From Saccostrea echinata (taxonomy: Eukaryota), in assembly GCF_033153115.1 (NCBI RefSeq), contig NW_026889785.1, positions 9,114,001 to 9,178,000 of the forward strand: a DNA stretch of 64,000 nucleotides, read 5' to 3'. Position numbers and translations under genes: made by a program. Under the pieces are notes generated by a model. It searched no databases. It worked only from the letters and a program-made list of their open reading frames with translations, and was not told where the DNA came from. Below, in pieces: positions 33,090 to 56,018 of this stretch. Every line of letters starts with the position of its first letter. The stretch's first letter is position 1.

Positions 33090-33317
33090 TTGAGTAAGCA
33101 AACAACGTTGTTCGCATTATCAAAAGTTCTGACGGGAATAAGAGGAAAAAGGTCAGTAGTGTGTCAGATAACGGAAGTATTAATAAAGGTGAAAAGAATG
33201 ATCATACCAAAAGAAAAAGAAAGTTTCAAGAGAGTTGGAGAGAAAGATTCCCGTGGGTGGAACTGGAAGTCCAGTCTCAATCTACAAGTGATACTGATAA
33301 CGGTGACTTGATGTATT
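33090..33317 (+). pseudogene. hAT transposase N-terminal part
   Basis: Reads RKFQESWRERFPWVEL...DLMY up to the TSD; continues in frame as CSYCR after 56018. Confidence 0.85.
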
Positions 33318-33508
33318 AGTAGTAAGGGGGACAGAGTACAGTCAGTATACAGTCACGATGACGTCATGGGGTTTTCCAGACCCCGCCCACATAGGTCATA
33401 ATATGGGTCACAGTCAAGGGGTGAGTCTACAGTCAATGACGTCATAGGTATCTAAGTGCAAAGAGTGAGTCTACAGTCAATGACCTCACGAGGTAGTTCA
33501 CAGTCAAG
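33318..33508 (+). repeat. Polinton left TIR
   Basis: Reverse complement of 55822-56012. Confidence 0.96.
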
Positions 33509-33690
33509 AGTGAGTCTACAGTCGCTGAGGATATTTAAGTGCACCAAGTGCGTCTACAGTCATTGAGGTCATTACAGTCAAGATCAAGCATTTCACAGTT
33601 TAGTGTGTCAAAGTGTGTTCACAAGGTTTTTTCACAGTCAAATACAGAAAAAAAGCAATAAATACCACAAACATTTAATTTGTTTTTGTT

Positions 33691-34258: not shown

Positions 34259-34690
34259 ATGGATGGTCTTGTAGTAGAGAGAATGCTGAGGAGAATATCT
34301 TTCCAATGGATTCGACGCTTGAACGACTGTTTTCTCGTTTTAACAAGAAGAGAAGAAGAAGATCTAGTGTGGATCTTAATGTACCTGATGCAATGCCAGA
34401 AACTGGCACTTACCATTAAAGGGAAACTTAAGACTTTTAAAAAAGAGAATCTAAACATACCATTATCAAAGTGGAAAAAACTAACGAAGTTAGTGAATGA
34501 TCTTAAAAGGAAAACAGAGGGAATGGACGTGCAGCTCTCTGCAACAATGAGGAAAAAAGAAACACGCCACGCATGTGCTTATTATTTTGGAAAAACACTG
34601 TACAAGACTACAAAGGAATTACTTGAGACGCTTCAAAAAACTCGTAAATTCATAAAAACCAACCGAAAGAACTTTGTTGTGCAAAAATAA
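34259..34690 (+). CDS. Polinton hypothetical basic protein (143 aa)
   Basis: ATG at 34259, upstream TATAAATAAGT at 34206; Lys-rich; no motif recognised. Confidence 0.6.
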   Translation: MDGLVVERMLRRISFQWIRRLNDCFLVLTRREEEDLVWILMYLMQCQKLALTIKGKLKTFKKENLNIPLSKWKKLTKLVNDLKRKTEGMDVQLSATMRKKETRHACAYYFGKTLYKTTKELLETLQKTRKFIKTNRKNFVVQK

Positions 34691-35035
34691 CTGTCAAATG
34701 TGCCTATTGATTAAGAAAAAAAACAAGTTAATTTTACAAAGTATGTAAACAGACATTTGTACAATCAAGAGGTCACAGTCAATTGTTCTACAGTCAGTGC
34801 GTTCTACAGTCAACAGATTTCCACAGGAAGTGCATTCTACAGTCGGTGCGTTCTACAGTCAAAAATTCTACAATTGGTTCATTTTACAGACATGATTCTA
34901 CAGTCAATAGCCACGTGACTTGAATCATATATAAACTTTGAAAATTTCAAAAAGTTTCATCAGTTCTGAGCAAATCTCAGACAGGATACAACTCTGCTTT
35001 TTTTGTTCCTTGTGAGATCCTTGTCAGCAGCAGAA

Positions 35036-36019
35036 ATGGAGCAAAAACATCAAGACTTGATTAAGGCAAACTACTCGACATTGGTGAAGAAGATGATGGC
35101 TGTTCCTGTTGCGGGACATCTTTACGCCTCAAACATAATTACCGATGAAATGAGACAACAGATAGACGCTGAGAAAACCAGCTATGACAAAAACAGAAAA
35201 TTGATCAGCTTCATTTTACGTCGAGGTTCGAGAGCTTTTATGGGACTTAGAATGGCATTAATGAAAGCCAATCAAGCTGACTTATCCCGACTCCTAATGA
35301 ATAAGGATGATGACACAAAGTCTGAGTACGAAAAGAAGCTGGACATGGCAAGATCATTAGTCGTTAATACTAAAGAAAGAGGAGGTTCCAGAAATCAATC
35401 AAAGAAAGTCGATCATCAACAGTCTCAGGAGCCAAGATGTAGGATAAGTTTGGATGACTTTAATGACCTATTCCTCACCGTCATGCCTTTTAAGGGGGAG
35501 ATTTACGTCCACATCCGTCATTTCACAGAATCGCATGGTCGTTTCATTGCCACCAAGAAGGGAGTTACCTTTCCTTTAGCCCGTTGGTTAAAGTTTGAAT
35601 CTCTCTTACCAGATATTCAAGACTACATTGACAATACTGGAAAAGAGGATGAAGAAGCACAGTGGCATGTTGGTGGAGGTGTGTTCGTTTCGTTATCACC
35701 AGGCTATCCGACAGTGGACATAAGACACTTTTGGAAGCCAGACAATGTTCAAGAACCTATACCTACAAGGAAAGGTGTAACTCTAAACAGAAACAAATTT
35801 GCCAGACTTATCGATGTCATCGGGGAGATGCATGAATGTGTTCCAGAACTAAAAGACATTGAACTTTGCATGCTCAGCGAGTCTCATCAAAATCAGCTTG
35901 GAATGTTAAGCTGCCCGGAATGTACCCCCTTTGGCTACGATCCACAAGACAATATATCAATGGAATGTAACGCCGGTGATTTACAAGACAGGGAAACCAT
36001 TGAAAATGATCTTGAATGA
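35036..36019 (+). CDS. CARD + two PC4-like ssDNA-binding domains + C-H-CxxC finger (327 aa)
   Basis: N-terminal death-fold pattern (LIKANYSTLVKKM..HLYASNIITDEMRQQI..KNRKLISFILRRGSRAF..LRMAL..QADLSRLL); PC4 signatures FKGEIYVHIRHF..TKKGVTF..W and VDIRHFW..PTRKGVTL. Confidence 0.82.
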   Translation: MEQKHQDLIKANYSTLVKKMMAVPVAGHLYASNIITDEMRQQIDAEKTSYDKNRKLISFILRRGSRAFMGLRMALMKANQADLSRLLMNKDDDTKSEYEKKLDMARSLVVNTKERGGSRNQSKKVDHQQSQEPRCRISLDDFNDLFLTVMPFKGEIYVHIRHFTESHGRFIATKKGVTFPLARWLKFESLLPDIQDYIDNTGKEDEEAQWHVGGGVFVSLSPGYPTVDIRHFWKPDNVQEPIPTRKGVTLNRNKFARLIDVIGEMHECVPELKDIELCMLSESHQNQLGMLSCPECTPFGYDPQDNISMECNAGDLQDRETIENDLE

Positions 36020-36211
36020 CAATGAACACTAATCCAACATAATTAATGATATGGGTGTAACATTTATTTATTATTTATTGTGTATCTATCTTTTATGTTA
36101 CTATTTCATTCTAACAATATCAAAATAAAATAGTTCAAAATATACCTTGTATTTTTTTACAATGATATAAAATGTTACAACCGAAGAGAGAGATCATTAT
36201 TATGTTTCAGT

Positions 36212-37369
36212 ATGCCAGACTATACGGATTACTTAAGAGAGCTCTACTACACCCCCGGTAAATCGGGGGCCTATGCAGGGCCTGAAAAATTATATCAAGC
36301 TGTTAAACAGGAAGGCAAATACAAGATTGGTAGACGGAGAATAAGACAGTTTTTAAACAATGAAGATTCTTATAGTCTGTATAAACCTATTCGTAAAACA
36401 TTTCCGCGTTCAAAGGTGATAGTGAACACCATTGACTCTATGTGGGATGGTGACTTGGCAGACGTTTCAAACATTGCATCCCATAATGATGGATTTAAAT
36501 TCTTATTAGTGCTTATTGATATATTTAGTCGATATTTATTTATAGTCCCCTTACAAAATAAACATCATCAGAACATTGTTGATGGTTTAAAATCAGTTTT
36601 CCAAAAAGGACGAAAACCTAACACCCTTAGAACAGATAAGGGTAGCGAATTTAAAAATCGTTGGGTAAAGACATTTCTGAAAAAAGAGGGAATAAACGTC
36701 ATATACACTCAAAATGAAACAAAAGCAAATTATGCCGAGAGGGTAATTCGAACCATGAAGAACCTAATGTATCGTTATTTCATGAAGAATCGAACCTACC
36801 GTTTTGTGAATGTTTTGCAAGACTTGGTAAACAGTTACAACAATAGACCTCACAGATCATTAGGTGGGAATGCTCCAACCAATGTGAACCAAGAAAATGT
36901 CGATGAAATAAGACTCGAGTCTTATCTTTCGGGGAAAACAAAACTAGATCTGACCAAAAACGATCTGAACCAGTCTAATGAATCAAGCAAAACAAAAGTG
37001 AAAAAAAGAGTGAAACCCTTTTTCAAATTAAAAATTGGAGATAATGTCAGAATATCACAACTAAAATACCCTTTTCAAAGAGACTACCAACAGAAATGGA
37101 CAGAAGAGTTTTTTAAAGTGAGTGAAAGATACAAACGCGGTCAATTACCTGTGTACAAGGTAAAAGATTTAGCAGACGACCCTATAGAAGGTACATTCTA
37201 TGAGCCTGAGCTTCAAAAAGTCATAAAGTCAGAAGACGTTTCTTATAGAGTGGAGAAAATTCTTAAAAGAAGACGTCGTGGTAAAGCCAAAGAGGTGTAT
37301 GTAAAATGGGAAGGATGGCCAAAAAAATTTAATTCATGGATTCCGGAGAGCTCTCTGGAAAAACAATAA
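36212..37369 (+). CDS. Retroviral-like (rve) integrase with C-terminal chromodomain
   Basis: WDGDLAD, IDIFSRY, RTDKGSEF, AERVIRT, YNNRPH; YRVEKIL...YVKWEGWPKKFNSWIP. Confidence 0.96.
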   Translation: MPDYTDYLRELYYTPGKSGAYAGPEKLYQAVKQEGKYKIGRRRIRQFLNNEDSYSLYKPIRKTFPRSKVIVNTIDSMWDGDLADVSNIASHNDGFKFLLVLIDIFSRYLFIVPLQNKHHQNIVDGLKSVFQKGRKPNTLRTDKGSEFKNRWVKTFLKKEGINVIYTQNETKANYAERVIRTMKNLMYRYFMKNRTYRFVNVLQDLVNSYNNRPHRSLGGNAPTNVNQENVDEIRLESYLSGKTKLDLTKNDLNQSNESSKTKVKKRVKPFFKLKIGDNVRISQLKYPFQRDYQQKWTEEFFKVSERYKRGQLPVYKVKDLADDPIEGTFYEPELQKVIKSEDVSYRVEKILKRRRRGKAKEVYVKWEGWPKKFNSWIPESSLEKQ

Positions 37370-37404: not shown

Positions 37405-37827
37405 ATGAGTGTTCGAATGGTGTTGACGTCTACGGACAGCTCTGAATATTTTGAAAATAAACCCAATTGCTTTCGAGTTCAATTAAATAAACAGATTCAA
37501 TTTGACGGATATTGGACTGTTGCCCTGACAGAATTTTCTACAGAGAGTTGGTTGTCATCTAAGAAGAAATCAGAGTTGTTTGTGTGTTGTGATATTTGTG
37601 AGGAAACGATAATTGGGGGAAAAGAGGCACCCCTTCTAAGACGCGTATACCTAGGTGAGAAACCAGAAAGTATCACTTACACACTACCTTATTACATTCC
37701 AGTTAAAATTAGCCAATTACAGCAGATCGCTATATATATAACAGACAGAGAAGGAAACTTAGTTTCATTCTTAAACGGACCGGTGACTGTAACACTTCAT
37801 TTCAAGAAGTTTCCATACGTTTTATGA
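37405..37827 (+). CDS. Minor capsid protein (penton-like single jelly-roll), short form
   Basis: LTSTDSSEYF.N...FRVQL..I...GYWTVAL.E, CDICEE.IIG....PLLRRV, YIPV, VTLHFKK resemble Polinton mCP. Confidence 0.75.
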   Translation: MSVRMVLTSTDSSEYFENKPNCFRVQLNKQIQFDGYWTVALTEFSTESWLSSKKKSELFVCCDICEETIIGGKEAPLLRRVYLGEKPESITYTLPYYIPVKISQLQQIAIYITDREGNLVSFLNGPVTVTLHFKKFPYVL

Positions 37828-38342
37828 TGAATAGCCAAACGTACGTGAGTGATCCCAGAATATGGGAAGCTTTCTACAAGAACATGGCAGAGAAAAAATT
37901 CAACCCTTACAAATACAAGCCAAAACAAATTGGGAGAGGTGTGAGAAGTTACAAGTCTTACGTCATCCCGCTGAGGCCTCACTCGCAGTTAGAACCTGTA
38001 GAAAACAGCACTCAAGTGACTCCAGTAGCTGCTGTGGAGGAAAGAGCTAAAGTGGAACATGCCAAGGACGTTAAAGAGGGGGTTCCATTTGTCAAAGTAC
38101 AGGGGAGTATAAAAAGGCCACATTCACAATCTTCTGTCATTCCTTCAAAGAAATTGAAGCCAACAACATCTCGAAATCCGAGGAAAAAACAGTCAACTAA
38201 ATCTGCAAAACAAAGAAAGGCCTCAGCAGTGAAGAAAAAGAAGACTGTTAAGAAACAACGACGAGCGCCACGCAAGAAAACACAGTCGAGAAAAAAGAAA
38301 GAATTTAACATTGACAGTTACAGAAGTGTCTTTAAACAGTAA
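37824..38342 (+). CDS. Basic, putative DNA-condensing core protein
   Basis: Very K/R-rich C-terminus, QIGRG motif, located between the two capsid genes. Confidence 0.6.
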   Translation: MMNSQTYVSDPRIWEAFYKNMAEKKFNPYKYKPKQIGRGVRSYKSYVIPLRPHSQLEPVENSTQVTPVAAVEERAKVEHAKDVKEGVPFVKVQGSIKRPHSQSSVIPSKKLKPTTSRNPRKKQSTKSAKQRKASAVKKKKTVKKQRRAPRKKTQSRKKKEFNIDSYRSVFKQ

Positions 38343-50400: not shown

Positions 50401-50934
50401 TAAAAAAATAAAAAAGGATCATTCAGCAACACACTGTGGCCTTCATATGTTATATTCAGGAACTACCGTAATAAGAAAGGGGTCGATTTACACATGTGCA
50501 CACATCTTTAGCAGAAAAATCAATAATACCACGTGACGTAGCATAAGCCACTTGTAAAGTGTTGACGGGGGACTGGTTTTGAAATGATACTTCTTTATGT
50601 GGCGGATTCAGGATTTACTGTTCCCAAAAAAAAGGGGGGGGGGTGTTGGAGTCGAAATCTAATTTACATGCGTTTTAAATTTTGTAAAAATGCATAATTT
50701 GCACTTACCACAAATACGACCACGAAGATCTCGAATCTTTATCATGGCAGGGTCCCCGAAGACAATCACCCGGTTAAGTCCACAGGATGTCACAAACACT
50801 TCACGAACTTCCGTCACGTTCACCCGGACTTCTCGACAGTCCGGCCAGTAACATGTCAACACCCTCCTGTCTACAGGTGCATTTTGCACCGATACAATAC
50901 ATGTCATAATGATTACGAGCGTTCTGTCGTCCAT
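47403..50934 (-). CDS. Spliced type I membrane mucin-stalk protein; exons 50934-50709, 49960-49904, 49654-49595, 49355-49323, 49125-49063, 48818-48786, 48603-48544, 48415-48371, then 48166-47883 or 48166-48080 + 47824-47403
   Basis: All junctions are GT-AG phase 1 and all internal exons are multiples of 3; signal peptide, 4-Cys head, Thr/Ser/Pro-rich stalk, TM followed by basic residues. Confidence 0.78.
48610..49780. repeat. ~535-bp tandem duplication that duplicates an exon pair
   Basis: Identical 33-nt exons at 48786 and 49323; near-identical exons at 49063 and 49595 with shared intron sequence. Confidence 0.85.
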
Positions 50935-55780: not shown

Positions 55781-55821
55781 GTCACATAAATTTTGTGACG
55801 TCAGTGACTGTGTACTCACCC

Positions 55822-56012
55822 CTTGACTGTGAACTACCTCGTGAGGTCATTGACTGTAGACTCACTCTTTGCACTTAGATACCTATGACGTCATTGACTG
55901 TAGACTCACCCCTTGACTGTGACCCATATTATGACCTATGTGGGCGGGGTCTGGAAAACCCCATGACGTCATCGTGACTGTATACTGACTGTACTCTGTC
56001 CCCCTTACTACT
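55822..56012 (-). repeat. Polinton right TIR
   Basis: Reverse complement of 33318-33508; ends ACTACT. Confidence 0.96.
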
Positions 56013-56018
56013 TGTATT

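Follow-up and report, generated by a model that had tools for sequence, protein, structure and literature searches.

A CARD joined to tandem PC4 repeats in bivalve Mavericks: a candidate viral ssDNA-binding protein

The CARD-PC4 gene of a Saccostrea echinata Maverick may encode a viral protein that binds ssDNA and, through an accessory CARD, acts on host CARD signalling. We analysed a 64,000-nucleotide stretch of S. echinata DNA (the window) and found, at positions 35036-36019 of the plus strand, a single open frame of 327 amino acids that joins a CARD, two PC4 repeats, and a putative zinc site. We read it as a bivalve Maverick version of a tandem-PC4 (MOSUB-like) gene with a CARD added at its N-terminus, and we hold the proposed roles in ssDNA binding and host signalling tentatively, with a probability of about 0.45.

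The CARD and the two PC4 repeats were recognized both by family profiles and in a predicted fold. The original prediction had seen a CARD pattern in about 87 N-terminal residues. We place the CARD at aa 1-89 (35036-35302), and Pfam PF00619 matched aa 7-89 with 46.3 bits against a cut-off of 23.9. This domain is basic, with 15 lysines and arginines versus 8 aspartates and glutamates and a pI of 10.1, and Pfam found no caspase domain in the protein. The two PC4 signatures were confirmed by PF02229, which matched two stretches with 55.4 bits (cut-off, 25); repeat 1 covers aa 134-200 (35435-35635) and repeat 2 covers aa 205-272 (35648-35851). A linker (aa 90-133; 35303-35434) joins the CARD to the repeats, and the protein ends in an acidic tail (aa 300-327; 35933-36016) that is disordered by model and composition. 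All of these segments are read from the plus strand. AlphaFold2, with a 75-row alignment of homologues, gave a helical bundle (aa 3-86), a disordered linker of low pLDDT, two beta-sheet and helix repeats, and a low-confidence acidic tail (mean pLDDT 77, pTM 0.53); folding from the single sequence with no alignment reached a pLDDT of only 36. The modelled bundle matched the Apaf-1 CARD with a Z score of 17.9 and an rmsd of 0.9 Å over 89 residues. Pfam, the model, and the structure match agree on a six-helix death fold with the CARD family profile, and the repeats have both the PC4/Sub1 profile and its beta-sheet and helix fold. Neither an N-terminus without a death fold nor repeats unlike PC4, the two outcomes that the original prediction had named as contrary to it, was found with Pfam and AlphaFold2.

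The putative zinc site follows the repeats. The motif C-x5-H-x8-C-x2-C (aa 278-296; 35867-35923, plus strand) is present as predicted and is conserved: C278, H284, C293, and C296 were kept in 72/73, 71/71, 71/72, and 71/72 of the homologues with a residue at that place. Because Pfam gives no match in this region, the earlier name "zinc finger" comes from the motif and not from a recognized domain.

The two repeats are predicted to pair within one chain as PC4 subunits do between chains. A single-chain PC4 pseudo-dimer had been proposed, and in the model the repeats do pair; together (aa 130-274) they matched repeats I-II of PURA (Z 11.4, rmsd 3.9, 137 aligned residues), and Foldseek concurred. 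PURA also has two PC4-like repeats in one chain that form an intramolecular dimer, but it is cellular, lacks a CARD and the zinc motif, and is 11-12% identical to the window protein; the likeness is one of fold only. Human PC4, fungal MoSub1, and the phage T5 PC4-like SSB have the fold and the DNA-contact residues in common with the window protein. They are homodimers of one-repeat chains, whereas the window protein has two asymmetric repeats per chain, a zinc motif, and a CARD.

The DNA-contact residues of PC4 are divided between the two repeats in a complementary way. Human PC4 binds DNA through both monomers of its dimer, with backbone contacts by R86, R100, and K101 and stacking by F77 and W89, and its ssDNA binding is lost when F77 or W89 alone is changed to alanine (PMC4350104). 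Repeat 1 of the window protein has an F77-like aromatic residue and R86-like and R100/K101-like residues, and lacks the W89-like residue. In repeat 2, as aligned with human PC4, a W89-like W233, R230, and R245/K246 are present and the F77 hairpin is absent. This arrangement recurred across 148 tandem-PC4 relatives. R161 was kept in 142 of 146 and R230 in 147 of 148, with a basic residue at position 174 in 138/146 and at position 245 in 134/148. Repeat 1 had an aromatic residue at the F77-like place in 126/145 and at the W89-like place in 3/146; repeat 2 had the W89-like aromatic in 142/148 and a shortened hairpin with no aromatic. Basic contacts are in both repeats, the F77-like residue only in repeat 1, and the W89-like residue only in repeat 2. 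The simplest reading of these complementary losses would be one composite groove in the fused dimer. If the F77-like and W89-like residues must share one protomer, the pattern would instead argue against ssDNA binding. An SSB role for the tandem-PC4 protein is plausible.

The gene belongs to a 22.7-kb Maverick/polintovirus, directly upstream of the integrase gene. The left TIR, which starts AGTAGT (33318-33528), and the right TIR of 212 nt (55801-56012) are 97.6% identical and are flanked by a 6-bp target duplication, TGTATT (33312-33317 and 56013-56018). Pfam identified an rve integrase with a chromodomain (36212-37369, plus strand; PF00665 and PF00385) and a protein-primed DNA polymerase B (pPolB; 41631-46340, minus strand; PF03175 in both halves). 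With AGTAGT-type ends, a 6-bp duplication, an integrase, and pPolB, the element is a Maverick, and the Polinton setting that had been assumed holds. The polymerase frame contains three internal stops, all within 43232-43372. A broken polymerase was ruled out because this gap is a conserved GT-AG intron: its GTAAGA start and AG end are shared by the window and 7 of 7 other copies that we checked, its length is 120-170 nt, and one RNA read and one contig skip it.

The element also appears to contain a morphogenesis module, all on the plus strand. A double jelly roll major capsid protein (38345-39661; PF21738, E 0.003; 97 genome matches) and an A32-like packaging ATPase (40226-40909; PF04665, E 0.001) were detected below the Pfam cut-off. 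Two ORFs in 37405-38342 had no Pfam match and are kept in relatives; from their position and the Maverick gene order we take them to be a penton (37405-37827) and a basic core-like protein (37824-38342). The ORF at 39658-40125, also with no Pfam match, is presumably an adenain-like protease, judged by motif and position.

The CARD-PC4 gene seems to have its own promoter. A likely Pol II promoter (34912-34964, plus strand) combines CACGTG at 34912, a TATA box at 34928, and a TCAGT initiator-like motif at 34960, and an AATAAA that is likely the polyadenylation signal is at 36124-36129 (plus strand). A TATA at -72 to -111 was present in 31 of 31 distinct upstream sequences and an E-box-like word 15-16 nt ahead of it in 22 of the 31, all from related copies whose counts are not independent. 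The word CTACAGTC is repeated at both TIRs and upstream of the gene (33427-33561, 34788-34905, and 55852-55903), 12 times in the 22.7-kb element versus 2 times in the 41.3 kb outside it, and is possibly a binding site. A 143-aa ORF (34259-34690, plus strand), found at 36-42% in some copies and absent in others, has a weak likeness to PC4 repeat 1 (profile E 0.005, but an hhalign probability of 9.7%). The right arm of the element (46456-50600) consists mainly of tandem repeats with units of ~134 and ~530 nt and has few ORFs.

CARD-PC4 genes form a multi-copy family in bivalves. A protein search found 82 relatives. Those with a name belong to Saccostrea, Crassostrea/Magallana, and Ostrea, and there is also a single partial protein of Pinctada. 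When 1.84 billion representatives were searched with a profile, 166 matches reached E 1e-30 or better; when the longer 63 of the best 150 were scanned, 13 had a CARD and PC4 at E 0.01. The named ones are from Pinctada imbricata, Mytilus galloprovincialis, M. edulis, and M. trossulus, and relatives in M. californianus and M. coruscus were seen as well. We infer that the mussel and pearl-oyster genes, too, are in a viral setting. Two M. coruscus relatives bear the name CASP2 (P0356 and P0350) and have the Pfam CARD (with PC4) only, with no caspase catalytic domain. A scan of IMG/VR found no relative, and atlas searches returned generic CARD clusters only. The architecture had been called unusual, and it is, but it is not rare, recurring in many copies across oysters, mussels, and a pearl oyster.

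Within S. echinata, the family copies are numerous, divergent, often broken, and tied to Mavericks. There are at least 126 matches in the genome, of which 43 cover 297 residues or more with an identity of at least 55% (these are matches, not counts of insertions). The integrase is directly downstream in 28 of the 30 top loci of this genome; the same holds for 6 of 7 additional divergent copies of the family and for 5 of 6 loci from metagenomes. Maverick matches are mostly on four of the 425 contigs (C5, C6, C33, and C36). One 2.6-kb derivative (G000:C33:29867391-29869957; L097/L098) has both AGTAGT ends and a 6-bp duplication, with a CARD-PC4 gene, cut within the C-terminal zinc-motif region, as its sole gene.

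Related Polintons carry tandem-PC4 genes both with and without a CARD, the contrast that the original prediction had suggested surveying. At 17 of 20 distant loci an integrase adjoins a tandem-PC4 gene that has the zinc motif and only a short N-terminus with no CARD. Of the other three, one had no Maverick match within 10 kb, and two belong to a sister family, CARD-PC4-PC4 with no zinc motif. Overall, the zinc motif was present in 126 of the 148 tandem-PC4 relatives. An intact zinc-less sister gene (L044:4225-5082, minus strand; G000:C57:6101224-6102081), with relatives at 81-86% in O. edulis and S. cucullata, adjoins the inner side of the right TIR in another Maverick; the capsid of that element is 39% identical to ours, and its polymerase does not match ours. 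That location ruled out a host gene, a candidate suggested by the lack of Maverick matches within 10 kb. In one cluster of the sister family, an identical 285-aa protein was on 76 contigs and another on 60. Wherever the surroundings could be read far enough, CARD-PC4 copies of both families were in a Maverick or its remnant.

PC4-like ORFs extend to still more distant Mavericks. We chose elements by capsid instead of by PC4, and 7 of 7 (from 11 others at 38-41% capsid identity) contained a PC4-like ORF, of other types; among six scanned with Pfam, one was above the cut-off, four were below it, and one gave no match. Single PC4-like domains in divergent Mavericks (L206:6497-7000, L209:6554-6988, L215:4023-4526, and L218:4037-4477, all plus strand) follow a hydrophobic, membrane-like segment with NxT/NxS sites, which is odd for a DNA-binding fold. 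Because of these ORFs, a PC4-like fold alone does not mean an SSB. L206 and L209 also have degenerate tandem PC4-like ORFs followed by C-x2-C-x4-H-x5-H-x4-C (L206:8995-9771 and L209:8862-9623, minus strand), and neither element had a polymerase that matched two polymerase queries.

The core of the protein has been labelled before in viral records. In a search of viral folds, the top match was MOSUB of a Branchiostoma lancelet adintovirus (A0A5H3CIS2, E 2.4e-6), and a second MOSUB, of a Bos-associated insect adintovirus (A0A5H3CT48), was at rank 7 (E 2.5e-3). Like the tandem-PC4 core, MOSUB is a PC4/MoSub1-like protein of ~200 aa from a Polinton-type virus; unlike the window protein, to which it is 15-16% identical, it is 197-203 aa long and has no room for a CARD. 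From this fold match at 15% identity, the window gene may be homologous to MOSUB, and we call it MOSUB-like. The name is a map label in Supplementary Fig S2 of PMC8502044 and is absent from the main text, as far as that source was available. We found no function or discussion of MOSUB in print. The equine herpesvirus 2 E10 protein and a lymphocystis disease virus CARD protein were also among the viral fold matches. Like the window element, these are animal DNA viruses with a CARD, but neither is a Polinton. E10 is an NF-kB activator, and CARD-only proteins of iridoviruses are apoptosis inhibitors; to our knowledge, neither E10 nor the lymphocystis protein is fused to a DNA-binding replication protein.

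The CARD appears to be an addition to a common Maverick gene. Because most relatives are without a CARD, it is not required for the core role of the PC4 gene, and we regard its function as accessory. We built a tree of the PC4 part from 148 of 170 rows, a selection that cost 5 CARD rows whose PC4 coverage was too short. Of the 32 rows with a CARD, 27 grouped in one clade of 39 (SH-aLRT 94). In a 62-row tree the support for the CARD clade was down to 31, and enlarging the clade by outliers was not rejected in AU tests (p 0.39 and 0.48). The N-terminus of the tandem-PC4 core is a recurrent fusion site, because other additions are found there: a CCHC knuckle, a C2H2 finger, and a weak CARD-like match in P0209, P0228, and P0258.

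The closest structural likeness of the CARD is to Apaf-1. The original prediction had pointed to the part that CARDs play in caspase and RIG-I/MAVS signalling. Since RIG-I/MDA5/MAVS entries matched the model with Z 13.8-14.5 (13.4-14.5 with CARMA1 entries included) versus 17.9 for Apaf-1, a link to RIG-I/MAVS is less favoured. When nine viral CARDs were made into a profile and compared with solved structures, a designed CARD and Apaf-1 came out on top, followed by RAIDD and CARD8. In the S. echinata genome, 55 of 111 Pfam CARD matches coincided with the viral family. The best non-viral CARD among 44 loci, which hold most of the other matches, was a 91-aa ORF ending in a stop (G000:C29:2742897; L070:4898-5173, plus strand), with 61 bits versus 38-47 for the next, an hhalign probability of 98%, and 23% identity. 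This ORF looks like a CARD-only host gene. It is convergent with a death-domain exon, and we take exons near it to be WASH1-like and POGLUT-like. The CARD is only 22-36% identical to its nearest non-viral counterparts in the genome, too distant a likeness to point to a host target. CARDs split by introns were under-scored in this ranking, and the oyster caspase-2 CARD is split in this way (PMC7836458).

The CARD is under purifying selection comparable to that on the PC4 repeats. In a codon model of 31 distinct frames, omega was 0.169 for the CARD, 0.172 and 0.170 for PC4 repeats 1 and 2, and 0.083 for the zinc motif (aa 276-299), and rose to 0.387 in the linker and 0.446 in the tail; the value for 15 integrases was 0.095. 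Pairwise dN/dS (37 loci, 32 with a near-full open frame, 29 of them distinct) was 0.11 and 0.09 for the CARD in two mid-divergence bins and 0.11-0.13 for the integrase. These tests were on open frames, with broken copies excluded. Because the CARD is constrained like the PC4 repeats, and has an omega below that of the linker and tail, it is functional in the replicating lineage and not a passenger. There was no arms-race signature in this uniform, region-wise purifying selection.

The sub-lineage of the window was near silent in three sampled libraries. We sampled 44-47% of the reads of each of three raw oligo-dT adult libraries and counted reads at least 88% alike, a threshold that excludes divergent copies. 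Over 12.75 kb of the element the three libraries yielded 63, 45, and 20 reads, mainly on the polymerase, and the depth over the CARD-PC4 gene was 0, 0.69 (in one bin), and 0. The near-zero RNA weighs against a constitutive host role. One contig covering 35111-35676 comes from X1, which is only presumed to be an RNA run. Runs in which small fractions of the gene's words occur were left out of the evidence.

One described oyster immune protein probably belongs to this family. CgCARDCP-1 of Crassostrea gigas is, we assume, a CARD with one or more PC4 domains, and proteins of the CARD-PC4 family exist in C. gigas/C. angulata. The title of its report (Wang et al. 2018, PMID 29751033) ties it to the recognition of LPS and the activation of NF-kB, and PMC9223095 cites it as the example of PC4 function in oysters. 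Like the window gene it encodes an oyster CARD protein, but it was described as a host immune gene. Because every oyster CARD-PC4 gene whose context was read is in a Maverick or a remnant of one, we infer that CgCARDCP-1 is likely Maverick-derived. The name was absent among the CARD-PC4 protein clusters that we read, and P0266 (253 aa) was rejected as CgCARDCP-1 since it has no such name and no close match in the S. echinata genome. Bivalve PC4 genes have also been treated as a host expansion that includes two single-exon genes of 212 aa with two PC4 domains (PMC9223095). These single-exon scallop genes look like Maverick genes.

On our preferred, tentative reading, the gene encodes a viral ssDNA-binding protein that acts on the CARD signalling of the host through its own CARD. 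The two repeats would form a single-chain pseudo-dimer that likely binds single-stranded viral DNA, with one composite groove that would shield the displaced strand during strand-displacement replication by pPolB, and the zinc site may stabilise the C-terminal end. The CARD would derive from an animal host, probably through a single capture in the main bivalve clade. It might act by homotypic CARD-CARD contact with host proteins of the caspase-2/RAIDD/Apaf-1 type, so that the cell is kept alive or NF-kB is tuned while the element replicates. An explanation with no host target, which we consider unlikely, is that the CARD self-associates and chains PC4 pseudo-dimers along ssDNA in a cooperative coat. 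CARDs form filaments, and several filament entries were among the CARD fold matches; a flexible linker joins the CARD to repeats that are as constrained as it is, and a single-chain pseudo-dimer would have no free dimer surface. However, coating does not need a CARD, most relatives have short N-termini without one, and so strongly basic a domain would be less suited to the pairing of acidic and basic faces. Basic charge also underlies the reading to which we give least credence, that the CARD is a neutral passenger or a second nucleic-acid- or lipid-binding patch with no CARD-type signalling. The pI of 10.1 would suit such a patch, and the LPS recognition in the title of the CgCARDCP-1 report could reflect charge alone, but an omega of 0.17 over saturated synonymous divergence and retention in oysters, mussels, and a pearl oyster exclude a passenger.

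Other explanations assign the PC4 part or the whole protein a different task. Less probable than self-association is that the PC4 part is a viral transcription co-activator or promoter-opening factor like PC4/Sub1, its CARD bringing in partners for signalling or transcription. Cellular PC4 is a cofactor of Pol II (PMC4350104), a conserved TATA promoter precedes the gene near the left end of the element, and the CTACAGTC repeats are concentrated in the TIRs and ahead of the gene. However, the phage T5 homologue of PC4 is described as a replication-tied SSB, and Pfam recognized no other SSB gene among 12 ORFs of the element. A sensor plus a CARD is a layout typical of innate sensors, and the protein could be an ssDNA sensor-adaptor that serves the host or a resident provirus, foreign ssDNA clustering the CARDs to trigger NF-kB or death, with some copies domesticated; we think this quite improbable. 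Consistent with it are the identical zinc-less proteins on 76 and 60 contigs, as expected of a fixed locus, the 2.6-kb TIR-bounded derivative that carries the CARD-PC4 gene alone, and the reported stimulation of CgCARDCP-1 by LPS and Vibrio (PMC9330033). However, each copy whose surroundings were read far enough, the zinc-less one included, is in a Maverick or remnant, the copies are many, divergent, and often broken, their RNA depth is near zero, and viral replication alone can explain the selection. The broadest proposal, improbable and below the transcriptional reading, is that bivalve polintoviruses encode a one-chain ssDNA sensor-adaptor, whose PC4 pseudo-dimer would cluster the CARD on binding ssDNA and thereby switch host NF-kB or death signalling, and that proviruses thus supply about half of the CARD-coding loci of the oyster and part of the "expanded" host immunity that has been studied (CgCARDCP-1 and bivalve PC4 genes).

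Viral CARDs and viral PC4-like proteins are each known; no publication that we found reports a Polinton in which the two are fused, the spread of the fusion in bivalves, or the probable membership of CgCARDCP-1 in the family. The literature that we searched, which did not extend to subscription papers or to the supplements of bioRxiv preprints and most Polinton papers, contained no description of a CARD-PC4 fusion, and none was mentioned in the parts of PMC11131425 and PMC11161782 available to us. Searches that combined Polinton with caspase recruitment found nothing, and the sole match for Polinton with PC4 uses PC4 as a cluster label.

We found no ssDNA-binding protein of animal Polintons named in print, and on the preferred reading the CARD-PC4 protein would be a testable candidate for that role. 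In this gene, moreover, a death domain of host type is joined to a Polinton gene, and the fusion is kept by selection in several genera of bivalves. For annotation, 55 of 111 CARD matches in this genome are Maverick-borne, and two mussel relatives are named CASP2. If CgCARDCP-1 is a member of the family, then what has been published on it for LPS and NF-kB would provide functional data for the first time on an immune modulator from a Polinton.
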